Assembly (NCBI GenBank): GCA_963709855.1
Contig: CAVPXX010000012.1
Coordinates: forward strand, 18,269-50,268
DNA: 32,000 bases
Direction: 5' to 3'
Origin: an uncultured Alphaproteobacteria bacterium
Lineage (GTDB): Bacteria; Pseudomonadota; Alphaproteobacteria; Rhizobiales; Xanthobacteraceae
Shown here: positions 6,369 to 23,800 of the stretch, piece by piece
Layout of the letters: each line of letters opens with the position of its first letter
Position numbering within the stretch: the first letter of the stretch is position 1
Notes under the pieces: generated by a model
The model's input: only the letters and a program-made list of their open reading frames with translations
What the model was told of the DNA's origin: nothing
Databases searched by the model: none
Made by a program: the position numbers and the translations under genes

Positions 6369-6372
6369 ATCT

Positions 6373-7353
6373 CTATTCGATCACCTCGTCGGCGCGCGCG
6401 AGCAGCTGCGGCGGCACATCGACGCCGAGTGCCTTAGCGGTCTTGAGGTTGAGCACAAGCTCCAATTTGGTGGGCTGCTCCACTGGGAGATCGCCGGGGT
6501 TGGCGCCTTTGAAAATCTTGTCAATCAGGCCTGCCGAACGGCGGTAGAGATCGGGATAGCTCACGCCATAGCTGAAAAGTCCTCCTGCATCGACAAATTC
6601 ACGCGAGGGATAGGTGGTGGCGATTTTCTCCTTGGCCGCCAATTCGATGATCATTGCTCCATTCGCTTGAGTGGTGGCGTCGATCCCCACCAAAATGGCA
6701 TTGACCATGTGATCGACTACCATCCCGAATGCGTTCGCAATGTCCTGCGCGTTGCGAACGTCGAAAAGCTCGATCGCAATACCGAGAGTTGCCGCAACCG
6801 CCTGGCTTGCGTCCCATTGCGGAGCAGAAACGGGATTCCCCATGTTTTGCATAAAGGCCACGCGCGAGATTGACGGAAGCATCTCCTTCATCAGCTCGAT
6901 ACGCTTACCAGCCAGTTCGGTGACGAACGCGCTCAAACCCGTGATGTTGCTGCCCGGGTGCGCCAGGGTGGCGACAACGCCTACGCCGAGCGGCTCGCCG
7001 ATGGCAGCCATGACCACGGGGATTGTCTTCGTCGTCTCCTTGGCAGCCCGAGCAGCAGGGGTCCCCCGCGTGACTATGAGATCGACACGTCCTCGAACTA
7101 GCTCTAGCGCAAGCGCCGGGAACCTGTCGGCGTGGCCATCAGCCGAACGATATTCAATGACGAGGTTTTGCCCCTCAACATATCCCAGTTGCTGAAGCCC
7201 CTGCCGCAGCGCGTTGAAATTCGCTGCATTCGAGGCCAGCGGAATAGTTTCCAATATCCCGATCCGATAGGTGCGATTTGTTTGCGCCCGCGCCGCCACC
7301 GGCCACGCAGCCACCGCACCGCCGAGAAGGGTGATGAACTCGCGCCGCCTCAT
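6373..7353 (-). CDS. ABC-transporter-type periplasmic substrate-binding protein (PF04392 ABC_sub_bind family), intact copy.
   Basis: Start ATG 7351-7353 gives MRRREFITLLGGAVAAWPVAARAQ, a Tat-like signal. The body reads YRIGILE...VEGQNLVIEYRSADGH...GTPAARAAKETTKTIPVVMAAIGEPLGVGVV. The C-terminus is KGANPGDLPVEQPTKLELVLNLKTAKALGVDVPPQLLARADEVIE. Confidence 0.85.
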   Translation of the reverse strand: MRRREFITLLGGAVAAWPVAARAQTNRTYRIGILETIPLASNAANFNALRQGLQQLGYVEGQNLVIEYRSADGHADRFPALALELVRGRVDLIVTRGTPAARAAKETTKTIPVVMAAIGEPLGVGVVATLAHPGSNITGLSAFVTELAGKRIELMKEMLPSISRVAFMQNMGNPVSAPQWDASQAVAATLGIAIELFDVRNAQDIANAFGMVVDHMVNAILVGIDATTQANGAMIIELAAKEKIATTYPSREFVDAGGLFSYGVSYPDLYRRSAGLIDKIFKGANPGDLPVEQPTKLELVLNLKTAKALGVDVPPQLLARADEVIE

Positions 7354-7465
7354 GCCCGACCCCAAGCTCAGGAGGCGGCATTTTAGCGGCTCAAACGAGT
7401 ACTTTGATAGGGCTGAAACCGGCATCAAAACCATTGCCGCAGAGTGCACAGCCAATGTCACTGTC

Positions 7466-9043: not shown

Positions 9044-9808
9044 CTACTTATCGCTGCGGGAAAAACCCGGGCCCATATCCCAGGCCAACGGGTAATAGGG
9101 ACGATCCACGCTGCGGCACCAATTCTCCCATCCCCGTTCAAGCGTAAAGCCGGCGCGGCCCTTGGTGTTGGCGGCGATTTCACCGTCGCTCAAATAAGTA
9201 ACCTCGCCCATTGCCAGCGCCTTGCCGAGCATCTGGGCGTTGATTTCGGTGTAGATCGAGGTAAACACCGCCTCGCGCAACGACCTGCCGACTACCACGC
9301 AGCCGTGACCACGCATGAGAGCCACGGTGCGCATGCCAAGCGAATTGGCAAGGTCGCGCGCCATCTCCATGTTGGTAACGAGCAAGTTGGTGCTGTCGCC
9401 GAATTTGTCACGAATGTCCCAATTCGGAACGTCGCGGCCGACTGGCGAGGCCATGTGCATGATCGCGCAGAAGCACTGCTTTTTCACTACCGAGAACGGA
9501 ACGATGTTTGGACTGTGGTTGTGAACGACCGACCCGACGTCGGGACGCGCCTCCAGCACGGCGCCATGAATAAACCTCTCCGTATACGGCTTTCCGGGTT
9601 CAGGGCCGACAACCGTGCCGTCGAGTGTAAATTCCATAATGTCGTCGATCTCGACGCACATCGGCGCTCGGGCGCGGGCCATGAGAAAATGGCCGGGGTT
9701 GTCCGGATGACGGATCGACACGTGGCCGAATGAATCGAGTACGTTGTTGTCGGCGAGAATCCGGTTCGCGGTGACGAGATCATCTTTCAATCGGTACAAG
9801 TCAGTCAT
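9044..9808 (-). CDS. Class II aldolase/adducin-family protein.
   Basis: Start ATG 9806-9808 follows GGAG. The sequence MTDLYRLKDDLVTANRILADNNVLDSFGHVSIRHPDNPGHFLMARARAP...FIHGAVLEARPDVGSVVHNHSP...VALMRGHGCVVVGRSLREAV carries the family His-rich metal-site pattern. The upstream part of ORF 9044..10099 has no family resemblance. Confidence 0.8.
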   Translation of the reverse strand: MTDLYRLKDDLVTANRILADNNVLDSFGHVSIRHPDNPGHFLMARARAPMCVEIDDIMEFTLDGTVVGPEPGKPYTERFIHGAVLEARPDVGSVVHNHSPNIVPFSVVKKQCFCAIMHMASPVGRDVPNWDIRDKFGDSTNLLVTNMEMARDLANSLGMRTVALMRGHGCVVVGRSLREAVFTSIYTEINAQMLGKALAMGEVTYLSDGEIAANTKGRAGFTLERGWENWCRSVDRPYYPLAWDMGPGFSRSDK

Positions 9809-10458
9809 CCTGCTGCTCCAAGTTCGCCTCTGCGGTGATTGAAGCATCCTCGACCAAGGCAACTCTCCTCCCCCGTCCATAACCAGCAAACAAATCAAGA
9901 CGAAGTCGCGAACTACGTCAGCCCTATTTTGTCTTCTCGCGACTTCCGTCCAGCATCCAGGAGAACATCTCCTTGGTGCGGCGCGTCCTTGATTTGGGTC
10001 AAGCATCCCCAAGACAGCAATTAAACGCTGTGCGAAGATTGAAAGAATGCGCCTGATATTGCCGCACTGCGATATCGGGTGACCTTCTTGGCGCAGCACG
10101 GTGCAGGCAATGACAAGCTAAAAGCGTGCGGGACCGCAAATCCGAAACTTGAAACGCGTTACGCTTTTCTTGGCCAATTCGCGACGCAGCGTTGAAATTA
10201 CCTCAAGCTTATGTTCGAACGGCCGTTTATCCAGCGAGCTTGCATCGTTCTGATCGACAATTCAAGGACTTCGGTCATAAGGAGACGCAAGAAATTTCTA
10301 GACGGAGATCGATGCTTCGATAAACAAGCGAGGCGTGGCAGGTATCGAACGCAACCGATAAGATCAATTAATTTATTGCTTTCCTGTTCGATTCACAGAA
10401 TACATTTTGAAATTATACGGAGCAGCGGCAGCACGGCGATTGAGAAAGGAAAAGACAA

Positions 10459-11064
10459 ATGCGACGCCTAATTGTTGGCATGACCGGTGCAACCGGCGCA
10501 ATTTTCGGTGTGCGAATACTTGAGGCACTTAAAGACTGCGACGTGGAATCGCATCTTGTAATTAGCAACTGGGCGCGGCGAACTATTGAGCATGAGACGC
10601 CTTACACCGTTAAACAAGTGTGTGCGTTGGCCAATGTTTACCACAATTCAGCGAACATGGCGGCGAAAATCTCCTCAGGCTCGTTTATTACCGATGGTAT
10701 GGTGGTGATACCGTGCTCGATGCGAACGCTGAGCGGCATCGCACACGGTTATGGCGAACACCTCATCCATCGTGCTGCCGATGTAATTCTCAAAGAACGG
10801 CGACGGCTGGTGCTCGTCGTGCGCGAGTCGCCGTTATCCGAATTGCACCTCGAAAACATGCTGAAGCTAGCCCGCGCGGGGGCATCGATAATTCCGCCAA
10901 TGCCTGCCTTTTACAACCATCCAAAATCTATCGATGATATCGTCGACCATATCGTGGCGCGTGTGCTTGACCAGTTCGGCATCACTGCGCGTTTTGCCAA
11001 GCGCTGGGACGGCAAAATGAAGATGACGTCCCAGCTAAATGCCGAGCCGACGGACAACAACTAA
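10459..11064 (+). CDS. ubiX: UbiX-family flavin prenyltransferase (prFMN synthase).
   Basis: MRRLIVGMTGATGAIFGVRILEALK...VIPCSMRTLSGIAHGYGEHLIHRAADVILKERRRLVLVVRESPLSELHLENMLKLARAGASIIPPMPAFYNHP is a textbook UbiX/Pad1 sequence. The ribosome-binding site is GAAAGGAAAAG. Confidence 0.92.
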   Translation: MRRLIVGMTGATGAIFGVRILEALKDCDVESHLVISNWARRTIEHETPYTVKQVCALANVYHNSANMAAKISSGSFITDGMVVIPCSMRTLSGIAHGYGEHLIHRAADVILKERRRLVLVVRESPLSELHLENMLKLARAGASIIPPMPAFYNHPKSIDDIVDHIVARVLDQFGITARFAKRWDGKMKMTSQLNAEPTDNN

Positions 11065-11074
11065 TGGCCGCGCC

Positions 11075-11833
11075 ATGACTGCGGTAAATGCCTTACATCG
11101 GGGATTGGCTATCCTGCGTGCGATCAATGACGGCCACGTGCAGCTTCGCGAGATCAGCGCGGCTGCCAAACTGCCGAAGTCGACAATCGCTCGCATGTTG
11201 GAAACCTTGGTCGCCGATGGCTACGTGGCCCAGGATAGTGAGAAAGGTTATCACGTTACCGCGCGTGTCTTGACCCTCTCGCGCGGCTATAACGCCCACG
11301 AGTTCCTGCTCAAGGCGGCGCAACCCGTTTTGGAGGGCCTGCGTAAACATCAGGTCTGGCCGAGCGATCTTGCGGTATTCGATCAAGACGCCATGGTTGT
11401 TCTCGACACTGGCCGTGATCCGGGCACATTGTCGCTCAACCGTACCGTCGGGTCGCGCCTGCCGGTGCTGGTGACGTCGCTTGGCCGCGCTTTTCTCGGC
11501 TTCGCCGACGACGAGCTGGTTGACCGGACGCTTTCCCGCCTAGCCCGATCGACTGATGCTTTTGATGCGCCGGCAAAGAATGCCGCCGCTGTGCGACGCG
11601 TGCTCGGCCAAGTCCGGCGGCAAGGTTATGCGACCGGCGATCGCGAATACCAGCGTACCACCCGTACTCTTGCGGTGCCGGTCCTGGTCAATTCCGCGCC
11701 GGTGGCGAGCCTAAACATCATGGTGGTGCCAAGCGCGATGAGAATGGAGCAATTGGTGAAAAGCCTGCTGCCGGCGCTAAGCGCCGCCGCCAGGACAATA
11801 GGCACCGCGCTAACGCAAACGTCGCCGGGCTGA
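11075..11833 (+). CDS. IclR-family transcriptional regulator.
   Basis: N-terminal wHTH (ALHRGLAILRAINDGHVQLREISAAAKLPKSTIARMLETLVADGYV) and a C-terminal effector domain (GRAFLGF..., GYATGDREYQRTTRTLAVPV). ATG 11039, which overlaps ubiX, is an alternative start. Confidence 0.85.
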   Translation: MTAVNALHRGLAILRAINDGHVQLREISAAAKLPKSTIARMLETLVADGYVAQDSEKGYHVTARVLTLSRGYNAHEFLLKAAQPVLEGLRKHQVWPSDLAVFDQDAMVVLDTGRDPGTLSLNRTVGSRLPVLVTSLGRAFLGFADDELVDRTLSRLARSTDAFDAPAKNAAAVRRVLGQVRRQGYATGDREYQRTTRTLAVPVLVNSAPVASLNIMVVPSAMRMEQLVKSLLPALSAAARTIGTALTQTSPG

Positions 11834-11984
11834 TGTAGCAGTACAACAAGTTGGCATTTTCGCGCCAGCAGTGAAATCCCGATCCCTTTCTGCGGGCTAA
11901 TACTGAAGCCTCTGGAACAATTGATTTTTCTAGCGTTGCCCACAACCGTTTCGCAGTGTGGCCTATTCGCTGCGTTCCATCTAG

Positions 11985-11999
11985 CGGAATGACATTCCG
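11985..11999. promoter_or_regulatory. 15-bp palindrome; candidate IclR operator upstream of ubiD paralogue 1.
   Basis: CGGAATG-A-CATTCCG (7-bp arms) lies about 100 bp upstream of ATG 12098. It is nested inside a wider inverted repeat, CTAGCGG (11981-11987) / CCGCTAG (12027-12033). Confidence 0.35.
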
Positions 12000-12097
12000 A
12001 AAATGCTTGAGACGAGTTGCGAGACCCGCTAGCGTCACTCGTTTTTGGCGTGCGCCGGTTCGTGCCGCCGTCATCTCGCGCGGGAAGAGGTACGCAA

Positions 12098-13759
12098 ATG
12101 AACAAGATTGTCGACGTGCCGCTCGTCGGTTCGCATAAGCCTCAAGCGACCAATGCTATCGGCGAAAACCCGATCGCGGATTTGCGTGAATGGTTGGAAC
12201 GGGTGGAGGGAATTGGCGAGTTGACCCGAGTGCAACAGCCGGTTGACCGCGACGAAGAAATGAGCGCGATCTCATATCTGGTCGCCAAACAGCACCCCTC
12301 GCCGGCTGTCCTATTTGAGCGACCGCGCGGTTTCGAAAAGAGCGCAATCGGCGCCAGGATGTTGTGGAATATTCTCGGCCCCAGTGTGAAGCGCGTCGCG
12401 CTCACGCTTGAGGAACCGGCGGATACGCCGACAGTCGAATTGATCCGGCGTGTAAAGGACAAGCTCAAGCGGCGTCTGCCGCCGCAGGAGGTGTCTGCTG
12501 ATCAAGCTCCGGTCTATGAGAATACCGTCACTGGAAAAAATATTGATTTGAATTTGTTGCCGATCCCGCGGCACTGGCCGCTCGATGGCGGCCGTTATGC
12601 CGGCACCGCCGACGCGGTGATTACCCGCGATCCTGACAGCGGTTATCTCAATATCGGCACCTATCGAATGATGCTGCAGGGAAAGTCACAGGTCGGGCTC
12701 TACCTTTCGCCCGGCAAGGACGCACGTTTGCACATCACTCGGGCGTGGCAACAGGGCAAGTCCATCAATGTCGCCGCCGCCTGGGGCATCGATCCCCTGT
12801 TCATGTTGGTTGGCTCGCAGACATTTCCCAAGAATGTGTCCGAATACGAATACGCCGGCGGCATTAAGGGCCAGCCGATACCGGTCGTTCGCGGCATGAC
12901 GACCGATCTTCTGATCCCCGCCAACGCGGAGCTCGTTGTTGAAGGTGTTGTCCGGCCAAATTCGGTGAAATCGGAAGGACCGTTCGGGGAGTTTCCCGGT
13001 TATTACGGCCGGCCTGAAGCCGGCTGTCCGCTCGTCGACATCACCGCAGTGCACTACCGATCACAGCCAATTCTGACCAACGCCCTGATGGCGGATTATC
13101 CATCCTGCGAACAGAGCGGCTTTTTCTCGGTGATTCGATCAGCAAAGATCTGGGACGATCTCGACAAGCTCGGCATCCCCGGAATCCACGGGGTCTATTC
13201 GCATCCAGCGGCCGCGGGCGGGTTCGGCATGACCGTCATCAGCCTTGAACAGCGTTACGCCGGCCATGCCGCTCAGGTGCTGGCACTCGCGGCCCAGGTT
13301 CCCGGCGGCGCCTACTACACGAAATGGATTATTGCCGTCGACGAGGACATCGACCCGACCGACATGGATCAGGTGATCTGGGCGATGGCGAGCCGGTGCA
13401 ATCCGATCGACGACATCGATATCCTGCGCAACACTTGGAGTACCTGGCTCGATCCCACCCAGAACCCGCCGGAAAAGCGGCCTTACGGCTCGAAGGCGCT
13501 GATCAACGCTTGCAAAGAGCATCGCCACCTTCCGGTTTTTTCCAAACGCACCACGCTGCGTAAGAAAATCTACGATCAGGTTGCTGCGCGTTGGACGGAA
13601 CTTGGCTTGTCGGGCGAGGCTCCGGCCGTGCGGGCGTTCGAAGCCGAGAGTACGGTCACGTATCACGAGGTCGGCGGGTTCGAACCTGGGCGCCAGCCGG
13701 GCGAGAAAAAGCCGATGGACAAGACAAACAACAAGAAAATCAAAAAAAAGAAGATGTGA
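12098..13759 (+). CDS. UbiD-family prFMN-dependent (de)carboxylase, paralogue 1.
   Basis: ATG 12098 follows GGGAAGAGG. UbiD hallmarks are present: LNIGTYRMM, SEYEYAGG, EGPFGEFPGYYG, IIAVDEDIDPTDMDQVIWAMASRCNP. It has an unusual Lys-rich tail, NNKKIKKKKM. Confidence 0.9.
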   Translation: MNKIVDVPLVGSHKPQATNAIGENPIADLREWLERVEGIGELTRVQQPVDRDEEMSAISYLVAKQHPSPAVLFERPRGFEKSAIGARMLWNILGPSVKRVALTLEEPADTPTVELIRRVKDKLKRRLPPQEVSADQAPVYENTVTGKNIDLNLLPIPRHWPLDGGRYAGTADAVITRDPDSGYLNIGTYRMMLQGKSQVGLYLSPGKDARLHITRAWQQGKSINVAAAWGIDPLFMLVGSQTFPKNVSEYEYAGGIKGQPIPVVRGMTTDLLIPANAELVVEGVVRPNSVKSEGPFGEFPGYYGRPEAGCPLVDITAVHYRSQPILTNALMADYPSCEQSGFFSVIRSAKIWDDLDKLGIPGIHGVYSHPAAAGGFGMTVISLEQRYAGHAAQVLALAAQVPGGAYYTKWIIAVDEDIDPTDMDQVIWAMASRCNPIDDIDILRNTWSTWLDPTQNPPEKRPYGSKALINACKEHRHLPVFSKRTTLRKKIYDQVAARWTELGLSGEAPAVRAFEAESTVTYHEVGGFEPGRQPGEKKPMDKTNNKKIKKKKM

Positions 13760-13864
13760 GGCCCGGCTCGGTCCGCTCGAGCGATCATAAGAAATGTTCG
13801 TAACAACCTTGCTACTCCCGACGTTCCGTCGCGCACCCTCTCTGTAACGTGGAGTACTTCAATC

Positions 13865-15325
13865 ATGGCTTCCAATATCCATCCGAAAGACATGCGAACA
13901 TGGATCGCAGAATTGGAGGAAGCTGGTGAACTTATTCGTATATCCAAACCGGTCGACCCGCTCACACAGATGGGCTCACTACTCTATCAATCGCGAGAAA
14001 AGGCGCTTTTCTTCGAAAAACTACCGCATGGCTGGCGCTCGCTCGGTCAAGCCCCGGCAAATACTCGCCATGCGGCCATCGCCTTCGGCGCCAACCAAGA
14101 AACCATGGTGCCATTGATCGCCGAGCGCATGGGCAAACGCATTGCGCCGGTGATGGTCGAGGACGGGCCGGTCAAGGAGGTCAAGCTCGGCAAGAATGAA
14201 TTCGATCTCACGCATCTTCCGGTTCATGTCGCCGGCCAACGCGACGGCGGCCCGGTGATCGGCTCAGGCCTTGTCGTGTCGAAGGACCCCGACACCGGGC
14301 AGCGGAACGTGAGCTTCCATCGCCTCCAGATCAAGGGGCCTAACAAATCCGGCATTCTGCTTTACCCCCGCCATACCTGGAAGAACTACGTAAAATATCA
14401 AGCGCGAAACGAACCGATGCCGGTTGCAATCTTTATCGGTCACTATCCGCTCTATTACGCCGCGGCGGCGACGACAGCTGCCTATGGGCTCGATGAATTT
14501 GAGATTGCTGGTGGCTATCTCGGTGAGCCTGTGCGCCTCGTAAAATGTGAGACAGTGGATCTCGAGGTTCCTGCCGACGCGGAGATCGTTCTTGAGGGTC
14601 ATATCCCGCCGAATTATCGTGAGGAAGAAGGACCGTTTTCTGAATTTCAAGACTACTATGTGACCGGCACAGGCAAAAATCCGATCGTTGAGTACCAGTA
14701 CATGACGCGCCGGCACGACGCGATCTTCAAAAATCTCCAGAACGGTTCGGAGATGGAGGGTTGCGTCTTTCATAAAATCCCAATGAGCGCAGCCATATTC
14801 CGGCGACTCAAGGATGTCGGTGGTGGTCCCAATCTGCACAATGTGATGGTGATGCCCGGCGTTTTCGGAGTGGTTGTGCAAATGACGCCGCGGGCCTATG
14901 GCGAAGCCAAGAATCTGCTGTTGGCAGCGCTATCGTCCGAATACCAGCATCCGAAAGTTGCCATGGCAGTCGATGCGGATGTCGACATCTTCAATCCATC
15001 AGAGCTGATGTGGGCGCTTTCGACGCGCGTTGATCCGCAAAAAGATGTGACGATTATCTCCGGCACACATAATCACGCCATGGACGCAAGCTTGGCGGAG
15101 CTCGGCGCGCCAGGGACGCCTCTTTGGCAGCGCTTTGGGTCGAAGATGCTGATCGATGCGACGATTCCACCGCCAGCCGATGCCGAAGCCCGCGCGATGT
15201 TCGAACGCATTCGGCCGCGCAACCCGCAACTGCGGCTCGAAGATTTCGCTGCTGAAAGCTCTCTCCCGCTAGTTCGCGCCCTTTCCCCGATGTTCTTTGG
15301 GTCAAAGCTCTTGGGCGAACGCTGA
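13865..15325 (+). CDS. UbiD-family prFMN-dependent (de)carboxylase, paralogue 2 (divergent from paralogue 1).
   Basis: 486-aa ORF with a GTGGAG ribosome-binding site. Motifs: NVSFHRLQI, DEFEIAGGYLGEPV, EEGPFSEFQDYY, VAMAVDADVDIFNPSELMWALSTRVDP. Confidence 0.9.
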   Translation: MASNIHPKDMRTWIAELEEAGELIRISKPVDPLTQMGSLLYQSREKALFFEKLPHGWRSLGQAPANTRHAAIAFGANQETMVPLIAERMGKRIAPVMVEDGPVKEVKLGKNEFDLTHLPVHVAGQRDGGPVIGSGLVVSKDPDTGQRNVSFHRLQIKGPNKSGILLYPRHTWKNYVKYQARNEPMPVAIFIGHYPLYYAAAATTAAYGLDEFEIAGGYLGEPVRLVKCETVDLEVPADAEIVLEGHIPPNYREEEGPFSEFQDYYVTGTGKNPIVEYQYMTRRHDAIFKNLQNGSEMEGCVFHKIPMSAAIFRRLKDVGGGPNLHNVMVMPGVFGVVVQMTPRAYGEAKNLLLAALSSEYQHPKVAMAVDADVDIFNPSELMWALSTRVDPQKDVTIISGTHNHAMDASLAELGAPGTPLWQRFGSKMLIDATIPPPADAEARAMFERIRPRNPQLRLEDFAAESSLPLVRALSPMFFGSKLLGER

Positions 15326-15403
15326 ACCTGAGGAACTCGCAATAACAATGAGATCTGCAGTACCAATGGTTCGATGCGCCCGATAATGTGTGTGGAGGCT
15401 AAA

Positions 15404-16369
15404 ATGTCGAAACGGTGGCTTTGCACGATTGCACTGTTGTTGATGAGCTTCGGCACCCAATCATGGGCGCAGAGCTGGCCAAGCAAGCCTATCCGGGCGA
15501 TCGTGCCGTACAGTCCCGGCAGCGCGACTGACATCATTCCGCGCACGATTTTTGCCAAGGTCCAAGAACAACTGGGCCAGCCGATTATTGTCGAAAATCG
15601 TCCCGGGGCATCGAGCACGATTGGCACCGTAACGGTGGCAAAGGCTGAGCCCGATGGCTACACGATCCTAGTCGCCTCCTCGGCCTATACCATCGTGCCA
15701 TTGACAGTTGCGAATTTGCCCTATGATCCGTTGCGCGACCTGGTGGCGGTAACCCCGTTGGCCAATATGGCCAATGTGCTGGTTGTCTCTCCGGACAAAG
15801 CAGTCAAGACCGTCGGCGAGTTCGTCACAGCGGCTCGAGCGCGGCATGGATCGATGAATTATGTCACCATCGGAGAAGGAAGCGCGGCACATCTCAATTC
15901 CGTGCGGTTTCTTCGTGCCGCGGGCTTCGAAGCACAGCCGATACCCTATAAAGGGTCGCCGGCAGGGCTGACCGACGTCATGACCGGGCGGGTCGACTTT
16001 TATTTCTGTCCGCTGTTGCCTGCGCTTTCTCTGATTCGCGACGGCAAGCTCACGGCGCTGGCGGTGAGTAGCTTGGATCGCTCACCTAAATTGCCCGACG
16101 TGCCAACCACCATCCAAGCCGGGTTCCCGAACTCCGAGTATAATTTCTGGTTCGGTGTGTTCGCGCCCGCCAAAACTCCACCCACCATCATCCAACGGCT
16201 TTATGAGGAGATTACCAAGGCACTGCACGATCCGGGTGTGCAGGAAAAGTTGTCGAATCTCGGCGTCCAGCCGATGCCCATGACGCCGGCCCAGTTTGAT
16301 GACTATGTCCGCAAGGAACTCGAGCAAAACGCGGTGCTCGTGAAGGCAGCGGGCATCAAAGCTCAATAA
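15404..16369 (+). CDS. Bug/TctC-family (tripartite tricarboxylate transporter) periplasmic substrate-binding protein.
   Basis: ATG 15404 follows GGAGG. The signal peptide is MSKRWLCTIALLLMSFGTQSWAQ. Family motifs: WPSKPIRAIVPYSPGSATDIIPR, ENRPGASSTIG, PDGYTILV, IPYKGSPAGLTDVMTGRVDF. Confidence 0.88.
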   Translation: MSKRWLCTIALLLMSFGTQSWAQSWPSKPIRAIVPYSPGSATDIIPRTIFAKVQEQLGQPIIVENRPGASSTIGTVTVAKAEPDGYTILVASSAYTIVPLTVANLPYDPLRDLVAVTPLANMANVLVVSPDKAVKTVGEFVTAARARHGSMNYVTIGEGSAAHLNSVRFLRAAGFEAQPIPYKGSPAGLTDVMTGRVDFYFCPLLPALSLIRDGKLTALAVSSLDRSPKLPDVPTTIQAGFPNSEYNFWFGVFAPAKTPPTIIQRLYEEITKALHDPGVQEKLSNLGVQPMPMTPAQFDDYVRKELEQNAVLVKAAGIKAQ

Positions 16370-16409
16370 CGGCGAACTCATTTGGCATCTTTGTCTATAG
16401 GAAAAGTCC

Positions 16410-17411
16410 ATGATCGTCGATTTTCAACATCATTTCACGCCGCGCGAACTGTTCAAAGAGGACTTGGGTGACAAGCTAATCATCGCTTTCGACGAAACGG
16501 GTGCGCCGAGCTACACTTCGCACAAATTGCTTTATGATCTGGATGAACACATCCGCATGATGGACGTCGCCGGTATCGACGCCGCCTTCTTGACTAGCGC
16601 CGCCGCGATGTGTGCCGATATCGAGCGGTCGAAACTGGTCAACGACAAGGCCAAGCAAGCCGAGCGCGACTATCCGGGGCGCTTCATCGGAGCCGCCCAT
16701 GCCCATCCGCTGGGCGGCGCGCAGGCATTCAAGGAGCTGGCGCGCTGCGCACACGAGCTTGGCTTCCCGGGCGTGGTCATCACGTCGGAAGCCGATGGGC
16801 TGTTCCTCGATGCTCCGGAATACGAACCGTTCTGGACGGAAGCTGAAAAACTCGGACTGTTCGTTTTCGTACATCCGGCGCTGAAGCTGAATTTCCCCCA
16901 GCAGTTCGACGCCTACGACACGGCGCGCTCGGTCGGGCGTGAATTCTCGCTGATCATGGCCACGATTCGGTTGGTCAATGGCGGCGTCTTCGACCGCCAT
17001 CCGTCCCTCATGGTGCATATGGCGCACCTCGGCGGCGGCATCGCTTCCATGCTCGGCCGCATTCGCAGCTATCAGGACAAGGACTTCTGGGGCTTGCGCG
17101 GCAACGCCAAGCATGGCCGCACCTGCGAGAAGGATTTCGATTACTACCTGCGCAACAACTTCATGTTCGACACCGCCGGCTTCTGCGGCGCCATCGGCAG
17201 CGTCAAGACGGCATTGGTGGAGATTCCGGCCGAGCGCATCGTCTTCGCCACCGACTACCCGCAGGAGATTCGCGGGCGCGAGGTGGTGCGTGATTTCGTC
17301 CGCGATATCCGCAAGCTCGGGCCGGTCGGCGAGAAAATTATGTGCGGCAATGTCGATGTATTGCTGAAAGGGTGGAATTTGCCCCCTTCGAAGCCGTTAA
17401 AGATCCGGTAA
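16410..17411 (+). CDS. Amidohydrolase-2 family protein (PF04909; ACMSD / LigW / resorcylate-decarboxylase-like).
   Basis: 333-aa ORF. An N-terminal VDFQHHF motif, FVHPA, HLGGG and FATDYPQE match the metal-site pattern of the PF04909 decarboxylase/hydrolase family. The reaction type cannot be read from the sequence. Confidence 0.75.
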   Translation: MIVDFQHHFTPRELFKEDLGDKLIIAFDETGAPSYTSHKLLYDLDEHIRMMDVAGIDAAFLTSAAAMCADIERSKLVNDKAKQAERDYPGRFIGAAHAHPLGGAQAFKELARCAHELGFPGVVITSEADGLFLDAPEYEPFWTEAEKLGLFVFVHPALKLNFPQQFDAYDTARSVGREFSLIMATIRLVNGGVFDRHPSLMVHMAHLGGGIASMLGRIRSYQDKDFWGLRGNAKHGRTCEKDFDYYLRNNFMFDTAGFCGAIGSVKTALVEIPAERIVFATDYPQEIRGREVVRDFVRDIRKLGPVGEKIMCGNVDVLLKGWNLPPSKPLKIR

Positions 17412-17531
17412 AGGCGACGAAGGAACAGCCTAAAACACTGAGCATGGCGGAGGAGACCTTGACGATGGTCAAGGTCATTTTGGATGAGCCCGACTATTCA
17501 ACTTAAAGAAAAATAGCTGTTTGGCGCCGTC

Positions 17532-19205
17532 ATGCGGCTCGGGAAAGCCAGCCGGCAAATGCTGCAAGGATGCACAGCTTGGCCCGAGGAATCAGCTCGC
17601 CGCTATCGGCGGCAGGGCTATTGGGCTAACTTAACGCTCTACGACATGTTGCTCCATTCGGTCGTTGCCTCGCCGGACCGTATCGCGTTGGTGCACGGCG
17701 CGCGGCGCCTCAGTTATGCGGAACTTCGTATCGCGATCAACCGGCTGGCCGGCCACCTGATCGATCTTGGATTTCAGCCCCTTGATCGTGTCGTGTTCCA
17801 ACTGCCCAATTCGATCGAGTTTGTCATCGCGTTCTTTGCGCTGCTAAGCATTGGCGTGATCCCGGTACTGGCACTACCGGCGCATCGACGTGAAGAAATC
17901 GCGCACATATTCGCTCGCACGAAAGCGGCGGGCTACGTCGTGCCCGACCGCTGGCACGGCTACGACTATCGATTGCTCGCTGCGGAAATGTCCAGCTTGG
18001 CACCGTCGCTGCGCAACGTGCTCGTGCTCGGTGAGCCCGGCCCCAATCAGATATCCTTGAGCGACCTGCTTGCGCATGACGGTAGCCGCGACGACAACGC
18101 CAGGGCCCTCGCCGGCTTCTCCCCGGCGCCCAATGAAGTCGCCCTGATGCTGCTGTCGGGCGGAACGACGGGCCTGCCGAAGCTCATCCCGCGCACGCAC
18201 GACGATTACGTCTATAATTGCCGCCAGTGCGGCACCGTCGCCGGCTTCAACGCCGCGACCGTGTTCCTGGCCTTGCTGCCGATGGCGCATAACTACACGC
18301 TCGGCTGTCCCGGCGCGCTTGGCGCGCTGGCCCACGGCGGCACGGCCGTGATTGCACCGGACGCGAGCATCGAAACCGTCGCTCGCTTGATCGAAACCGA
18401 GCGCATCACGGTTATCTCCGCTGCCGTTCCGTTAATCGTCAACTGGCTGAACGCCGATCTTCCTCAACATCGCGATTTTTCCAGCATGCGCGTGGTGATG
18501 AACGGCGGCGCGAAGCTCGCGCCGGAACTGCGCCGCCGGGTCGAGCAGCGATTTGGCTGTACGTTTCAGGAGAGCTTTGGCACTGGCGAGGGGCTGCTGA
18601 ATATGACCCGCCTCGACGATCCAGCCGAAATTCGCTTCACCAGCTCCGGGCAGCCAATATCGCCGGCCGATGAGATCCGCATCGTTGACGAGGCGGGCAA
18701 TGACGTTCCGGATGGCACCGTCGGTGAACTGATCTGCCGCGGCCCGTATACCGTTCGCGGCTACTACAATGCCCCGCAAAAAGATCGCGCCGCCTTCACC
18801 AGTGACGGCTATTACCGCATGGGCGACATGGTGCGCCGGGTTGACGGCAATCTCTATGTCGAGGGACGCCTGAAGGACATCATCAATCGTGGCGGCGAAA
18901 AGATCAGTTGTGAGGAAGTCGAAAGTTACATTTTGGGCCATCCCAAGATCAAGAACGTCTGCGTGGTGGCAATGCCTGATGCTACGTTCGGCGAAAAGGC
19001 CTGCGCGTTCGTGATTCCAGTTGCAGGCAAGACAGTCGATTTGGACGAGATCAAAGGCTTCTTATTGGGCCGCAATATCGCGAAGTTCAAGTTGCCCGAG
19101 CGGCTCACGGTCGTGAACGAGTTTCCAATCAGCCCGGCCGGTAAAATTCTTCGCCGCGAACTACGTCAAGTTGCGGCGAAATCGATCGCGAACGCTCGTG
19201 CTTGA
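17532..19205 (+). CDS. Aryl-acid adenylating enzyme of the EntE/DhbE (2,3-dihydroxybenzoate-AMP ligase) type; possibly an aryl-CoA ligase.
   Basis: WPEESARRYRRQGYW, LLSGGTTGLPKLIPRTHDDYVYN, YRMGDMV, GRLKDIINRGGEKIS and PISPAGKILRREL are ANL-superfamily core motifs, and the N-terminus closely resembles EntE. The start could be ATG 17532 or ATG 17559. Confidence 0.85.
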   Translation: MRLGKASRQMLQGCTAWPEESARRYRRQGYWANLTLYDMLLHSVVASPDRIALVHGARRLSYAELRIAINRLAGHLIDLGFQPLDRVVFQLPNSIEFVIAFFALLSIGVIPVLALPAHRREEIAHIFARTKAAGYVVPDRWHGYDYRLLAAEMSSLAPSLRNVLVLGEPGPNQISLSDLLAHDGSRDDNARALAGFSPAPNEVALMLLSGGTTGLPKLIPRTHDDYVYNCRQCGTVAGFNAATVFLALLPMAHNYTLGCPGALGALAHGGTAVIAPDASIETVARLIETERITVISAAVPLIVNWLNADLPQHRDFSSMRVVMNGGAKLAPELRRRVEQRFGCTFQESFGTGEGLLNMTRLDDPAEIRFTSSGQPISPADEIRIVDEAGNDVPDGTVGELICRGPYTVRGYYNAPQKDRAAFTSDGYYRMGDMVRRVDGNLYVEGRLKDIINRGGEKISCEEVESYILGHPKIKNVCVVAMPDATFGEKACAFVIPVAGKTVDLDEIKGFLLGRNIAKFKLPERLTVVNEFPISPAGKILRRELRQVAAKSIANARA

Positions 19206-19217
19206 GGATCCCTTGCC

Positions 19218-20633
19218 ATGAAATTATTCGAACGCTTAAATGTCGGCGGGATGACCATTCCCAATCGCGTGATGGTTCCGGCGATGGTGACACGGCTTTC
19301 CGGCGAGGACGGCCTGGTCAATAAGGACATCAGCGACCGTTATGTCCGTTACTCGCAGGGCGGCGCGGGTCTCATTGTGATCGAGGCCATGGCGGTCCAT
19401 GCCGCCAAATCCGGTCCGCTGCTACGCATCAACGACGATAAGTTCGTGCCGGGCCTCACCGATCTGGTTCGGCGCATCCATGACGCATCGGACTCCAAGA
19501 TAGTCCCGCAGATCATCCACTTCATGAAAGTGGCCAAATCGGGCTGGCGGCAGACGATCGATATGCTGTCGTTGGTCGAGATCGACCGCATCGTCGAGGA
19601 ATTCGGCGACGCGGTTGCGCGGGCGCGCGCTGCCGGATTCGACGGCGCGGAGCTGCATTCGGCCCACGCCTACACGCTGGCATCGTTTCTGTCGCGCGCC
19701 AATCCGCGCTTGGACGACTATGGCGGCGACACGCTGGAAGGGCGCCTGCATTTGATCGGAAGGATTTTTGGAAACATTCGCCGCAAGGTCGGCGACGACT
19801 TTCCCGTCGGCGTCCGCTTCCTGGCTGACGAATTCATCAAGGATGGTTACACCGTCAACGATGCCAAACTCATCGGCCTACGGCTGGCTCAACTCGGCGC
19901 GGCGTATTTGTCATTATCCGTGGGTGGCAAGTTCGAGGATGCCATCCACGCTCCCGGCCAAGTGCCCTACCCCTACACCGGCTATTCGGGCGACCGCTGC
20001 ATGCCGGGCGACTGGTATCCGGCAGTGCCACACGCGCACTTTTCGGCGGAGATCAAAACCTTTATCAGGGCGCATGGTTTCAATACGCCGGTCGCTACCG
20101 CCGGCAAAATCTCCAACCCCGACGACGCCGAGCGGCTGGTGGCGACCGGCGCTGTCGATATTGTCGGCATCGCACGCGGTCTCCTGGCCGACCCGGATTG
20201 GCCGAACAAGGTTCGTCGCCGCGACTTCGATCGCATCGTGAAATGTGACTACTGCAACGTATGCAAACATCTCGACGGCACGCACACTCGCGTCATATGC
20301 GCGCTTTGGCCGCAGGGCTCGCTGCAGGCACCGCCGGACGATAGCTCGAGCGAAGCGCCGTGCTGGAGCGCGGAAGGCGCAAACCTGACGGCAACAATGG
20401 GTAATGGCAAGGTCACACTGAAATGGAACAAGGCAGCCGGCGCCGCACGCTACGATGTTTGCCGGACCGACCCGCTCGGCAATGTCGAGATCGCGGACGC
20501 CGTCAAGGTTACGCGGTGGGAGGATCATGGCCTGCTGGCAGGCATGCCATATCGCTATCACGTGTGTGTCTACGGTGCCGCCGGGTGTGGTGGCGCCACC
20601 TCGAACACGGTCAGCGTGTCATTGCCTAGCTGA
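19218..20633 (+). CDS. Old-yellow-enzyme-family FMN oxidoreductase with a CxxCxxCx11C motif and a C-terminal fibronectin-III-like domain.
   Basis: The OYE TIM-barrel signature is present: MTIPNRVMVPAM, GGAGLIVIEA, FDGAELHSAHAYTLASFLS, DDYGG, VDIVGIARGLLADPDWPNK. Cys343/346/349/361 lie at 20244-20300. The tail (20367-20630) reads ANLTATMGNGKVTLKWNKAAGAARYDVCRTDPLGN...RWEDHGLLAGMPYRYHVCVYGAAG...SNTVSVSL. Confidence 0.85.
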   Translation: MKLFERLNVGGMTIPNRVMVPAMVTRLSGEDGLVNKDISDRYVRYSQGGAGLIVIEAMAVHAAKSGPLLRINDDKFVPGLTDLVRRIHDASDSKIVPQIIHFMKVAKSGWRQTIDMLSLVEIDRIVEEFGDAVARARAAGFDGAELHSAHAYTLASFLSRANPRLDDYGGDTLEGRLHLIGRIFGNIRRKVGDDFPVGVRFLADEFIKDGYTVNDAKLIGLRLAQLGAAYLSLSVGGKFEDAIHAPGQVPYPYTGYSGDRCMPGDWYPAVPHAHFSAEIKTFIRAHGFNTPVATAGKISNPDDAERLVATGAVDIVGIARGLLADPDWPNKVRRRDFDRIVKCDYCNVCKHLDGTHTRVICALWPQGSLQAPPDDSSSEAPCWSAEGANLTATMGNGKVTLKWNKAAGAARYDVCRTDPLGNVEIADAVKVTRWEDHGLLAGMPYRYHVCVYGAAGCGGATSNTVSVSLPS

Positions 20634-20669
20634 GTGCCACTTTCAGGAATTTCCTAAAATCCCGACCAA

Positions 20670-21137
20670 CTACGCCGAAATTTCGAGCGTCTCCTTGTGG
20701 CCAAAGCCCTTTGTATTGTCGATCAGAACGATGCGAGCCGGCTGCAATCGATAGACGGCCGTTCGCGCATAGGCGTCGCGTAATTTCAATGGGCCCGCAG
20801 CCAATTGCCGAAGGAAAGGGTAACGCGCTTCAAGTTGTGCAAGGTGCCGCATTCGTTCATCCGCCGCTAGGATACGGCGGGCCGCACCAGCGATCTGCAC
20901 GCCCCGAATTGTCGCAAAATCCGAATAATCGGGCGCCACCGTGGCTGCCACACGAGGATCCGCATCGATGTCCCGGGAATGCTGCGTATCGGGCTCAGAT
21001 ACCCAGACGAGCGCCAACCCCTCGCATGCATAAAACAGGTTCGTCGCATGCGCTCCGGCCGCACCACATGTAGCGAGCGACATCACGTGGTGCCCTGCGA
21101 GAAAGGAACGAATCTCGTCGCTTAAGTTTGTATTCAT
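20670..21137 (-). CDS. Pyridoxamine 5'-phosphate oxidase-family (FMN-binding split-barrel) protein.
   Basis: 155-aa ORF with ATG at 21135-21137. The pattern FLAGHHVMSLATCG...NLFYACEGLALVWVSEPDTQHSRDI...ATVAP...IRGVQIAG is typical of small PNPOx-like proteins. Confidence 0.65.
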   Translation of the reverse strand: MNTNLSDEIRSFLAGHHVMSLATCGAAGAHATNLFYACEGLALVWVSEPDTQHSRDIDADPRVAATVAPDYSDFATIRGVQIAGAARRILAADERMRHLAQLEARYPFLRQLAAGPLKLRDAYARTAVYRLQPARIVLIDNTKGFGHKETLEISA

Positions 21138-22113: not shown

Positions 22114-22566
22114 TCACGATGCTGGCTTGCGTTTGAGCAGGAAGGCCTGAATGGCGTCTTGCACCACCTCGCCGCGTTGATTGAGAACCCTCAATTCGCG
22201 CTTCATCACCCCACGCTCACGGTTTGACGTTTCGCGTTTTTCCAGCACCTTGAGCCTGGCATGAATGGTGTCGCCGGGCTTCACCGGCTTGGTGAATTTA
22301 AGGCTATCGAAGCCGAGAAAGGCGATCAGCGTGTCGTCGTAGAGATGGAGCTGGAAGATCAGGCCGGCCGCGATGGCATAGACCAGCGGTCCATGCGCGA
22401 TGCGACCGCCGAATTGCGTCTGCTTGCAATACTCTTCATTTATATGGAGCGGATTGTAGTCGCCCGACAGCCCCGCGAACATGACGATGTCGGCTTCGGT
22501 GACGGTTCGTGCCGGGCTTTCGAATTCCGCACCGATTTCCCATTCTTCCCAATAGAGTCCTCGCAT
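22114..22566 (-). CDS. MaoC-like (R)-specific enoyl-CoA hydratase / dehydratase (single hot-dog fold).
   Basis: ATG 22564-22566 follows GAAGGAAGG; the track start at 22587 is a TTG. The sequence TVTEADIVMFAGLSGDYNPLHINEEYCKQTQFGGRIAHGPL is the MaoC hydratase motif. Confidence 0.85.
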   Translation of the reverse strand: MRGLYWEEWEIGAEFESPARTVTEADIVMFAGLSGDYNPLHINEEYCKQTQFGGRIAHGPLVYAIAAGLIFQLHLYDDTLIAFLGFDSLKFTKPVKPGDTIHARLKVLEKRETSNRERGVMKRELRVLNQRGEVVQDAIQAFLLKRKPAS

Positions 22567-22594
22567 TACACGCCTTCCTTCATTCAATTGAACG

Positions 22595-23800
22595 TTACTT
22601 GCGGTTTGTTTGACCGACCGCGCCGCTTTCGCGCAGGGCCGTAATCTCGTCGGCCGAAAGACGCAACAACGTCTTCAGAACGGCATCGGTATGTTCGTCC
22701 AGCATCGGCGCCGGCCGGGATATCGTCCTCACCATATCCGACATCTTGATGGGGTTGCCAGGCAGCCGTACTTTGCCAACCTGCGGATGGTCGTATTCGA
22801 CGATCATCTCGCGCTCCTTTACCGGTGGCTCCGCAAAAGCCGCGTCGACATTGTTCACCGGCGCCGCCGGCACATCCGCGGCGTGCAGCCGTTCCAGCCA
22901 GTCCGCGGCCGTCCGGCTGCGGAATATCTGCTCAAGCAGGGGTACCAGCACCGTGCGGTTCTTCACCCGGCTCGCATTGTCGGCAAAACGCGCATCGCCG
23001 GCGAGATCGGGATGGTCGAGCACGGTGCACAGCTTGCGCCAAAAGGCTTCCTGCCGGGTTGCGACGACGATGTAGCTATCCGCGGTCGCGAAGGCCTGCC
23101 ACGGAACGGAATAATCATGCGCTGAGCCTGGCGGCTTCGGCACTTCGCCGTTCGACAGCCACATGGTACCGATATAGCTCAACAAGTGGAGCATGGTGTC
23201 AAACATCGAGATTTCGACCCGGCGCCCTTTACCGGTGCGTTCGCGATCGAATAGCGCCGCTAAGATCCCTTTGCTTGAATAAATCCCACCACTAATATCG
23301 GCGAGCGGAATGCCGACCCGCACCGGCGGACGTCCGGGCTCGCCGGTGATCGCCATATGGCCGCTGATCGCCTGGATATTGAGGTCGAGCGCCGGATAGT
23401 CCTTGTATTCGCCAGCACTGCCGAAGCCGGTGACGGAGCATTGGATGATGCGCGGGTTGATGCCGCTGAGCGTCGGATAATCGATCTGGAGACGTTCGAG
23501 GACGCCGGGACGGAAGTTGTCGATCACGACATCGGACACCTTCACCAGATCGTAGAAGAGCTGGCGTCCGGCCGCGGTCTTGAGATTGATGACGACGCTC
23601 TGTTTGTTGCGATTGAACGTGAGAAACAGTCCGCTCAGCCCGCGGTACGGAGCAACCGACGGGATGCGGCCGAGATCGCCCTCGGGCGTCTCGATCTTGA
23701 TCACCTCGGCGCCGAGGTCCGACAGCACTTGGCTGCCGTAGGTGCCGGCGATAATCTGGCCGAGCTCCAGGATTCTGACGCCTTCGAGCGGATACGACAT
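22595..23800 (-). CDS. Family III (CaiB/BaiF) CoA-transferase.
   Basis: The real start is ATG 23798-23800, giving MSYPLEGVRILELGQIIAGTYGSQVLSDLGAEVIKIETPEGD, followed by NRNKQSVVINLK and ITGFG-like motifs. The 636-aa track ORF is an artefactual upstream extension that overlaps the acyl-CoA dehydrogenase gene. Confidence 0.88.
   Translation of the reverse strand: MSYPLEGVRILELGQIIAGTYGSQVLSDLGAEVIKIETPEGDLGRIPSVAPYRGLSGLFLTFNRNKQSVVINLKTAAGRQLFYDLVKVSDVVIDNFRPGVLERLQIDYPTLSGINPRIIQCSVTGFGSAGEYKDYPALDLNIQAISGHMAITGEPGRPPVRVGIPLADISGGIYSSKGILAALFDRERTGKGRRVEISMFDTMLHLLSYIGTMWLSNGEVPKPPGSAHDYSVPWQAFATADSYIVVATRQEAFWRKLCTVLDHPDLAGDARFADNASRVKNRTVLVPLLEQIFRSRTAADWLERLHAADVPAAPVNNVDAAFAEPPVKEREMIVEYDHPQVGKVRLPGNPIKMSDMVRTISRPAPMLDEHTDAVLKTLLRLSADEITALRESGAVGQTNRK

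Follow-up and report, generated by a model that had tools for sequence, protein, structure and literature searches.

The window analysed here is a 32,000-nucleotide stretch of DNA from an uncultured alphaproteobacterium of the Xanthobacteraceae (contig CAVPXX010000012.1, positions 18,269 to 50,268). Between positions 9,044 and 20,633 it carries genes for the flavin prenyltransferase UbiX, which makes prenylated flavin mononucleotide (prFMN), an IclR-family regulator, two UbiD-family (de)carboxylases (UbiD1 and UbiD2), a TctC/Bug-type carboxylate-binding protein, a PF04909 enzyme, an aryl-acid adenylating enzyme (hereafter the ligase) and a short old yellow enzyme (OYE)-family flavoenzyme, with a class II aldolase-fold gene, encoding AldII, lying divergently upstream. 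We found this cluster to be a mosaic of independently travelling modules, not one fixed operon. It is real and uncharacterised, and it brings known enzyme families together in a new combination. Our best explanation, in which our confidence is evenly balanced, is that an uncultivated Hyphomicrobiales bacterium from soil carries here a true catabolic island, mostly intact and put together from modules inherited separately, which works by decarboxylating free acids.

All genes named in the first-pass annotation of this DNA were found intact and on the strand it gave, using open reading frame (ORF) listing with Pfam and NCBIfam scans. The same gene calls had been made independently on a public metagenome contig that is 99.75% identical to the window (L083), and the description of co-oriented genes with a divergent class II aldolase-like gene was thereby confirmed. 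That the gaps between the genes are short is true only in part: from ubiD1 to the OYE gene all genes are co-directional with gaps of 12-120 nt, but the iclR-ubiD1 gap measures 264 nt and contains a conserved operator-like repeat, and 120 nt with a 9-bp-stem hairpin separate the PF04909 gene from the ligase gene. The start codon of UbiD1 is the ATG at 12098, preceded by a Shine-Dalgarno sequence (GGAAGAGG), giving a product of 553 aa and not the 580 aa of the ORF. The IclR gene, whose start may be 11075, was called with 252 aa on L083, and the AldII ORF reaching 10099 (351 aa) is a spurious upstream extension, the orthologues also having 254 aa. UbiX belongs to its family by two models (TIGR00421, 261.9 bits against a cut-off of 108.9; NF004685, 259.3 bits against 188) and scores just below the cut-off of 290 bits with the VdcB model (288.6 bits). 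The IclR protein reached 141 bits with TIGR02431, and the TctC/Bug protein 173-198 bits with BugE, Bug27 and terephthalate-binding proteins, a range that does not discriminate among them. No Rfam family matched anywhere in the window. Judged by its predicted products, the cluster would encode four types of non-oxidative decarboxylase, besides the prFMN synthase, a receptor for carboxylates and an IclR regulator of the aromatic-acid type.

Table 1. Features of the island and its borders (positions in the window).
Feature	Position	Strand	Basis
TctC/Bug gene remnant, first ~30-70 codons	8926-9131	-	tblastn with L007 TctC, two pieces of 62-85% identity
Class II aldolase-fold protein AldII, 254 aa	9044-9808	-	PF00596
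Last 20 codons of deleted UbiD3	9927-9986	-	tblastn with L007 UbiD3 residues 492-511, 90% identity
Degraded 3' PNPOx-like remnant, left inverted-repeat arm	10145-10299	+	tblastn, 59% identity over 39 aa
AT-rich 43-nt element upstream of ubiX	10367-10409	+	Alignment of six loci
UbiX flavin prenyltransferase (prFMN synthase)	10459-11064	+	PF02441, TIGR00421
IclR-family regulator, PcaU/PobR/MhpR type	11039 or 11075 to 11833	+	PF09339 and PF01614
Operator-like repeat TTCCA/G-N6-CGGAA-N4-ATTCCG, ~100 nt upstream of ubiD1	11975-11999	+	Locus alignment
UbiD1 prFMN-dependent (de)carboxylase	12098-13759	+	Three UbiD Pfam domains, TIGR00148
UbiD2 prFMN-dependent decarboxylase	13865-15325	+	Three UbiD Pfam domains, TIGR00148
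TctC/Bug periplasmic carboxylate-binding protein	15374-16369	+	PF03401
PF04909 (ACMSD-superfamily) enzyme, predicted ortho-hydroxyaryl-acid decarboxylase	16410-17411	+	PF04909
9-bp-stem hairpin at the junction of decarboxylase and ligase-OYE blocks	17455-17476	+	Terminator-like scan
EntE/DhbE-family aryl-acid adenylating enzyme	17532-19205	+	TIGR02275, salicylate-type pocket
Short OYE-family flavoenzyme	19218-20633	+	PF00724 only, CxxCxxC-x11-C motif
PNPOx-like FMN-binding protein, intact	20670-21137	-	PF01243; split-barrel, weakly YhbP-like

To compare neighbourhoods, we scanned species-representative genomes and obtained 80 loci with UbiD1 orthologues, all from metagenome-assembled genomes (MAGs), which were analysed by tblastn, ORF clustering and DNA alignment. 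The full gene order was found only in close relatives (L003, L007 and L008, all Hyphomicrobiales MAGs) with ~84-87% nucleotide identity over 12 kb, so that finding the whole cluster conserved reveals hardly more than a recent common descent. Other loci lack whole parts of it: L001, L006, L028 and L030 are without the ligase-OYE pair, and L002 and L004 are without the PF04909 gene. Aligned as DNA with L001, L006 and L030, the window shows the ligase-OYE block (17372-20665) as a cleanly inserted or deleted segment, with homology breaking at 17371 and the rest of the cluster kept. A promoter and terminator scan gave counts at chance level, and the hairpin at 17455 was retained because it lies at this junction. 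Elsewhere, UbiD1 occurs alone or with a class II aldolase-like decarboxylase, orthologues of UbiD2 (82-88% identity) stand alone with a divergent TctC gene in unrelated contexts, and the ligase-OYE pair occurs without any UbiD. The first-pass annotation had read the prFMN enzymes, the ligase and the OYE as one three-part functional unit, an idea that these loci do not support. Of the neighbourhood conservation for which it had suggested looking, the full order is confined to close Hyphomicrobiales relatives, and what recurs more widely is the separate modules.

The island comprises five modules. The first, ubiX-iclR, would supply prFMN and a PcaU/PobR/MhpR-type regulator. The second is ubiD1, with what appears to be its own promoter region holding a conserved operator of three half-sites. 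The third, ubiD2-tctC-PF04909, would provide the periplasmic carboxylate receptor and two further non-oxidative decarboxylases, and the fourth is a salicylate-type aryl-acid ligase coupled in translation to the short OYE with its predicted FMN and [4Fe-4S] cluster. The fifth is the remains of a divergent operon in which UbiD3 is deleted, AldII intact and TctC truncated.

The history of this fifth part can be read from the relatives, which carry a minus-strand operon UbiD3-AldII-TctC divergent from ubiX. Homology of the window to L007, L006 and L030 ends at ~8925, next to the TctC remnant, and the relatives have 1.5 kb extra at the position of UbiD3, of which the window keeps only the last codons (Table 1). 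The AldII gene is the survivor of this decayed operon. In L083, a 1-nt deletion at 9401 frameshifts AldII; it may be an assembly or sequencing error of the long reads or ongoing pseudogenisation of the decayed operon. Inverted repeats at 10192-10298 and 20677-20789, 80-88% complementary, bracket the block from ubiX to the OYE gene, and they fall in the degraded and the intact copy of a PNPOx-like gene. Such a gene lies directly upstream of ubiX in L001, L002, L004, L009, L012-L014 and L018, often after GTP cyclohydrolase I (GCH1). Because PNPOx directly precedes ubiX in so many relatives, the ubiX-to-OYE block of the window is inverted relative to PNPOx-GCH1. The PNPOx-like protein could deliver or handle the reduced FMN from which prFMN is made.

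This mobility also gives weight to the possibility that the modules are neighbours without a shared pathway, each (UbiD1; UbiD2-TctC-PF04909; ligase-OYE; AldII) serving its own substrate and having accreted in a catabolic hot spot. Every module is found separately elsewhere, insertions and deletions of whole modules separate close relatives, the block between the PNPOx repeats lies inverted to PNPOx-GCH1 when compared with L001, L002 and L004, and UbiD3 and a TctC gene have been lost. On the other hand, no prFMN synthase gene other than ubiX lies nearby, and both UbiDs must depend on it; the genes between ubiD1 and OYE, these two included, share one direction with close spacing, and their order is kept in at least five species-level MAGs. 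We regard functionally unrelated neighbours as a substantial alternative, if on balance an unlikely one.

Both UbiD1 and UbiD2 contain the domains PF20695, PF01977 and PF20696 and exceed the TIGR00148 cut-off of 244.85 bits (285.8 and 273.0 bits, respectively), which places them in the UbiD family; they are 27-29% identical to each other. The catalytic Arg and the Glu-x4-Glu motif, which we take to correspond to R173, E277 and E282 of Fdc1, are invariant in 79 UbiD1, 12 UbiD2 and 9 UbiD3 sequences. UbiD2 also has the canonical Asn/His/Glu metal site, and with it all canonical catalytic and metal residues. The metal site of UbiD1 departs from the canonical one and reads Asn/Asp/Glu, with GKD where PhdA, HmfF and UbiD3 have R/K-H. 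The Asp-for-His exchange is present in all 79 UbiD1 orthologues and in seven sequences grouped by MAFFT alignment and identity with a ~50%-identical sister clade; the Asn, the Glu, the catalytic Arg and Glu-x4-Glu are invariant across both sets. The Asp may still bind metal, and UbiD1 stays a member of the UbiD family because its fold and catalytic residues are kept. Its C-terminus bears an extension of ~50 residues with a lysine-rich tail (…KTNNKKIKKKKM).

Among UbiDs of solved structure, UbiD1 is closest to PhdA (247 bits, 37% identity), followed by VdcC (191 bits) and HmfF (190 bits), and UbiD2 is closest to HmfF (6h6v, 6h6x; 237 bits, 37% identity). Phthaloyl-CoA decarboxylase is the most distant solved UbiD, with 72 bits to UbiD1 and 98 bits to UbiD2. 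In sequence, then, both enzymes resemble free-acid decarboxylases far more than phthaloyl-CoA decarboxylase. The NCBIfam models for PpcA/PpcB, VdcC, MqnL-type proteins and BagN all scored far below their cut-offs, those for the phenylphosphate carboxylase equivalogs reaching 251.8 bits (TIGR02724, cut-off 469) and 171 bits (TIGR02723, cut-off 565). An obligate heteromer of UbiD1 and UbiD2 of the PpcA/PpcB kind was considered and rejected, the two being adjacent in only 12 of the 80 loci.

The comparison with characterised UbiDs, which had been proposed as a check, yielded at most 37% identity (to PhdA and HmfF) and no close homology to a known operon. No characterised operon matching the cluster was found, and literature searches on UbiD with class II aldolases, benzenepolycarboxylates, TctC clusters, pyridine dicarboxylates, mlr6791, and salicylyl-CoA with OYE turned up no account of it. 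The view of the cluster as uncharacterised and prFMN-centred is accordingly upheld. Megablast of the whole cluster against plasmids gave no match, and a protein search with UbiD1 and UbiD2 in 72,556 plasmids returned no homologue above 40% identity and no cultured-strain counterpart there.

The UbiD1 clade was found only in uncultivated bacteria, in at least six phyla, with ~80% identity, the Asp-for-His exchange and a recurrent neighbour encoding an aldolase-fold decarboxylase. Orthologues share 77-94% protein identity across phyla, their hosts being Hyphomicrobiales/Xanthobacteraceae, Burkholderiales, Binatia, Thermodesulfobacteriota/Syntrophobacterales, Verrucomicrobiia and Chloroflexota; in a library clustered at 50% identity, the value drops to 44-46% for the nearest full-length proteins beyond the clade. 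Cross-phylum pairs have a nonsynonymous divergence (dN) of ~0.15 and a synonymous divergence (dS) of 1.2-3.9, saturated or not computable. Because dS is saturated while dN stays at ~0.15, the ~80% identity reflects strong purifying selection; the same dS values led us to reject recent horizontal transfer as the cause of the conservation. A class II aldolase-fold gene is the commonest neighbour of UbiD1 (37 of 80 loci; immediate in 30, co-directional in 26), the Binatia-type protein, AldII', being only 31% identical to AldII of the window. An IclR gene adjoins UbiD1 in 22 loci, and 23 loci hold two to four UbiD paralogues.

The setting of UbiD1 changes with its host. In MAGs of Binatia, Thermodesulfobacteriota, Chloroflexota and Verrucomicrobiia (L054-L080, e.g. 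L061 5923-11530), AldII'-UbiD1 lies between ileS-lspA and PII-glnA, sometimes preceded by a lipid A acyltransferase-like gene, with no UbiX or regulator gene nearby. In Burkholderiales, UbiD1 stands beside genes for IclR, an acyl-CoA ligase, an enoyl-CoA hydratase, a short-chain dehydrogenase/reductase and acyl-CoA dehydrogenases.

Two metal-dependent enzymes would complement the UbiDs. The best solved relative of AldII is 2z7b (Mlr6791; E 1.4e-54), far ahead of the aldolases (E 1e-8 to 1e-11); we take Mlr6791 to be the 3-hydroxy-2-methylpyridine-4,5-dicarboxylate 4-decarboxylase of vitamin B6 catabolism. The metal-site residues E/HxH/H are present in AldII (E, HNH and GHG motifs), as expected of a class II aldolase-fold decarboxylase, and the 3,4-dihydroxyphthalate decarboxylase PhtC is among its top NCBIfam matches, all with scores far below the cut-offs. 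AldII is predicted to be a metal-dependent aromatic-acid decarboxylase. The PF04909 enzyme matches its Pfam family with 79 bits, and its best solved relatives, gamma-resorcylate decarboxylase and LigW, reach only 81-95 bits. Its translation shows the motifs DFQHH, VHP, HMAH and TDYP, candidate counterparts of the His residues of strands 1, 5 and 6 and the Asp of strand 8 in ACMSD-superfamily decarboxylases, and the family also holds hydratases.

The ligase scored 551.6 bits with TIGR02275, below the cut-off of 723.55 for EntE/DhbE. Salicylate- and 2,3-dihydroxybenzoate (DHB)-AMP ligases gave ~500-530 bits, and the salicylate-AMP ligase 5wm2 gave 533 bits. In its motif HNYTLGC, a Cys occupies the position of Ser240 of DhbE, as in the salicylate-AMP ligase CahJ; Cys versus Ser at this position presumably discriminates between salicylate and DHB. 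The motif is found in 9 of the 10 OYE-linked ligases compared, that of the window included, and the tenth (L081) has HNFTLGS, with Ser.

In the OYE, the FMN barrel (PF00724) is followed by C343-x2-C346-x2-C349-x11-C361. The four Cys are invariant in 27 homologues, so the Fe-S motif reported in the first-pass annotation is real, and barrel and motif together are those of the 2-enoate/dienoyl-CoA/2-naphthoyl-CoA reductase (NCR) subfamily. The FAD/NAD(P)H (Pyr_redox) domains of that subfamily are missing from its 471 aa, in which PF00724 alone was found. The same annotation had called the OYE truncated, which it is not: its homologues form a large conserved family of uniformly 471-499 aa, and the absence of these domains is native for this reason. 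In a structure model, the last ~90 residues form an eight-stranded all-beta domain (predicted local distance difference test score, pLDDT, 85-90), which looks like a fibronectin type III (FN3) domain, its fn3 profile match being weak but full-length (E 0.045). A fold search with the whole model (mean pLDDT 65) confirmed only the OYE barrel. The electrons of the OYE must come from a separate partner.

In L081, L082, L088 and L089, with no UbiD nearby, OYE orthologues (78-84% identity) show translational coupling to ligases that are orthologous as well (63-76%); three of these ligases keep HNYTLGCPG, and that of L081 has HNFTLGSPG. On two soil MAG contigs (L088 521-8437 and L089 517-8437) the pairs close a co-directional operon of seven genes, padE-padF-padG-padH-padI-ligase-OYE, in which the ligase and OYE are 73-80% identical to the pair of the window. 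Four of the five proteins PadE-PadI, the NADH-dependent phenylglyoxylate dehydrogenase, scored above their NCBIfam equivalog cut-offs. This identification as PadEFGHI led us to reject the 2-oxoacid oxidoreductase genes as an electron-donor system for the OYE. Phenylglyoxylate dehydrogenase forms an aryl-CoA; with the pair encoded directly behind it, the OYE may therefore be an aryl-CoA reductase, and the likeness to the logic of an aryl-CoA ligase with an OYE-type aryl-CoA reductase noted in the first-pass annotation gains support. By analogy, this operon is the best evidence to suggest that the ligase makes a CoA thioester. It further suggests that L088 and L089 have an aryl-glyoxylate/aryl-CoA route not yet described. 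The ligase and the short FMN/[4Fe-4S]/FN3 OYE could constitute a new ferredoxin- or partner-dependent reductase system for ortho-hydroxybenzoyl-CoA-like thioesters, and the chemistry might be ring dearomatisation or reductive removal of a hydroxyl. In L081 (12539-20539), a ligase-MarR-OYE set lies beside genes for a CoxLMS-type molybdenum hydroxylase, XdhC, and MocA-like and SelD-like AIRS-family proteins, an arrangement reminiscent of aryl-CoA or N-heterocycle hydroxylases.

Two conserved noncoding elements point to regulation. The operator-like repeat upstream of ubiD1 is kept wherever a Hyphomicrobiales locus has an IclR gene upstream of UbiD1 (12 loci), also where UbiD2 is lacking; two inverted and one direct half-site are the pattern of PcaU/PobR operators. 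TTCCR-N6-CGGAA occurs across the window at chance frequency only, which does not support further operators. The element at 10367-10409, probably a promoter or operator, hardly varies between loci whose other sequence differs by ~15%. We rejected the idea that this AT-rich ubiX leader holds a riboswitch, whether for FMN or of another type, as Rfam gave no match at either threshold. The genes of the cluster may be co-regulated.

Taken together, the catabolic island we favour would work as follows. The Bug protein would bind hydroxylated aromatic or heteroaromatic di- or tricarboxylates for uptake, a substrate class close to the (hetero)aromatic polycarboxylates proposed in the first-pass annotation, which are a reasonable choice. 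As free acids, these would lose carboxyls through the prFMN enzymes UbiD1 and UbiD2, and the PF04909 enzyme and AldII, as putative metal-dependent ortho-hydroxy-acid decarboxylases, would strip others. Where the ligase-OYE module is present, the resulting ortho-hydroxy mono-acid could be converted to its CoA thioester, and the OYE could then reduce the ring or a conjugated double bond with electrons entering from an external donor through the Fe-S cluster.

Several points weigh against this explanation. Characterised UbiDs are at most 37-40% identical to the island enzymes, and substrate specificity cannot be transferred at this distance. The housekeeping neighbourhood of UbiD1 in MAGs of Binatia, deltaproteobacteria and Chloroflexota agrees poorly with a catabolic function, and its neighbours in Burkholderiales make a CoA-linked or carboxylating role possible. 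EntE-family enzymes normally load carrier proteins and not CoA, and the window encodes neither a carrier protein nor a nonribosomal peptide synthetase. It also contains no TctA/TctB membrane partners, oxygenase, thioesterase or electron donor for the OYE.

If UbiD1 or UbiD2 acted on thioesters, the pathway would be of the CoA-dependent phthalate/isophthalate type named in the first-pass annotation, the ligase making an aryl-dicarboxyl-CoA, a UbiD decarboxylating it and the OYE reducing the product. Clusters for phthaloyl-CoA decarboxylase (pcd) combine UbiD, UbiX and a CoA-activating enzyme, as this one does; a family III CoA-transferase is encoded 2 kb downstream, and UbiD1 adjoins AMP-ligases in the Burkholderiales loci. 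Against it, the scores of phthaloyl-CoA decarboxylase (72 and 98 bits) are the lowest of all and compare with 237-247 bits for the free-acid enzymes, UbiD1 and UbiD2 occur without any ligase and close relatives (L001, L006, L030) keep both in loci free of the ligase-OYE pair, the ligase pocket is salicylate-type, and the CoA-transferase is part of a separate convergent MaoC/acyl-CoA dehydrogenase/HpcH operon. This model is disfavoured and, in our judgement, quite improbable. Equally improbable and disfavoured is carboxylation of an arene or phenol by a UbiD in an oxygen-independent logic within a soil alphaproteobacterium, with the ligase activating the acid and the OYE dearomatising the aryl-CoA: the window has no oxygenase, ligase-OYE orthologues follow padEFGHI, genes of anaerobic phenylacetate catabolism, phenylphosphate carboxylase beta models are the next-best NCBIfam matches of the UbiD1/UbiD3 clade, and the OYE family includes the type III aryl-CoA reductases, which contain FMN and a 4Fe-4S cluster (PMC6502838, PMC12093976), but the carboxylate-binding TctC proteins argue for uptake of acids, the window lacks genes for phenylphosphate synthase, PpcC/PpcD and a kinase, scores with the PpcA and PpcB models fall far short of the cut-offs, and the OYE is without the FAD/NAD(P)H domains of NCR.

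The flanks of the island contain further genes. On the minus strand at 22114-25901 lies the operon of the CoA-transferase, with genes for a MaoC hydratase, an acyl-CoA dehydrogenase and an HpcH/citrate-lyase-beta-like lyase, which resembles itaconate or methylsuccinate-type catabolism of C5-dicarboxylates through CoA esters; a TetR gene follows on the plus strand (26004-26753). After it, at 26750-30577 (+), genes for an Asp/Glu-racemase-superfamily protein, a second TctC receptor and an S15/CocE-type hydrolase have the look of a further small module for handling carboxylates; the racemase superfamily also includes arylmalonate decarboxylase and maleate isomerase. In the left flank (3619-7461) are genes for GAF-domain, HbpS/GlcG-like, PEBP-family and ABC substrate-binding proteins, none evidently linked to the cluster, and the ORFs at 1068-3408 had no Pfam match.

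UbiD/UbiX enzymes are sought after as reversible (de)carboxylases, and few of their substrate classes are known. Loci of uncultivated Hyphomicrobiales and Burkholderiales from soil combine as many as four UbiD paralogues with Bug receptors and two further kinds of non-oxidative decarboxylase, which points to a route removing carboxyls from polycarboxylated aromatics. Oxidised lignin, humic matter and pyrogenic carbon are rich in such compounds, and a pathway of this kind has not been described. The interest of the region lies mainly in the orphan UbiD1 clade and the ligase/short-OYE pair, and less in the cluster as a single pathway; that both represent new enzymology is a tentative suggestion to which we attach low confidence. 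If true, the pattern of UbiD1 would fit a widespread, novel (de)carboxylation reaction in soil carbon turnover, and the extreme conservation of the clade offers a clearly delimited target for expression and substrate screens. The ligase-OYE pair is a concrete candidate for an unassigned aryl-CoA reduction step and, if this holds, would carry OYE-type aryl-CoA reduction beyond polycyclic substrates to monocyclic ones and into aerobic soil bacteria. That the apparent three-part pathway is not a fixed unit calls for caution when pathways are annotated from a single genome.

Finally, we compared the island with known systems. PhdA of Mycolicibacterium fortuitum (7pda), a prFMN-dependent decarboxylase of free phenazine-1-carboxylate (PMC10850782), is the best solved relative of both UbiD1 and the deleted UbiD3 (40% identity to the latter). 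UbiD1 differs from it in the Asp at PhdA's metal His and in the C-terminal extension. In the HmfF/HmfG system for decarboxylating 2,5-furandicarboxylate (FDCA) (hmfFGH' of Cupriavidus basilensis HMF14), genes for UbiD, UbiX and a Bug/TctC-type receptor are clustered as in the island, and UbiD2 orthologues are labelled 'FDCA decarboxylase 1' by JGI pipelines. UbiD2 has only 37% identity to PtHmfF, however, and its gene is followed by the PF04909 gene; the context of HmfF is not reproduced, the furoyl-CoA dehydrogenase and synthetase genes (hmfABCDE) and hmfH being absent from the window. The phthaloyl-CoA/isophthaloyl-CoA decarboxylase systems (8pmk, 8oz5) likewise encode UbiD, UbiX and a CoA-activating enzyme together, but theirs is the farthest solved UbiD, and the ligase of the island is a separable salicylate-type module. 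Two adjoining UbiD paralogues recall PpcA/PpcB of the phenylphosphate carboxylase PpcABCD, and UbiX is VdcB-like as in the phenolic-acid decarboxylases VdcBCD/BsdBCD; the island differs in lacking PpcC, PpcD and VdcD and in equivalog scores that all stay below cut-off. Mlr6791 and PhtC remove a carboxyl ortho to a hydroxyl of an aromatic dicarboxylate, and AldII shares their class II aldolase fold, although the other genes of vitamin B6 or phthalate catabolism are absent near it. The OYE differs from NCR (6qkg) in its ~90-residue beta domain, which replaces the C-terminal FAD/NAD(P)H part, in a score of only 69-71 bits and in its host, a soil alphaproteobacterium. It nevertheless shares with NCR, the phenanthroyl-CoA reductases and the dienoyl-CoA reductase (DCR) the OYE TIM barrel, FMN and the CxxCxxC...C motif of a [4Fe-4S] cluster; NCR and DCR are among the best structural matches of its model (TM 0.57-0.59), and the likeness to type III aryl-CoA reductases extends to the pairing of its gene with one for an aryl-acid ligase.

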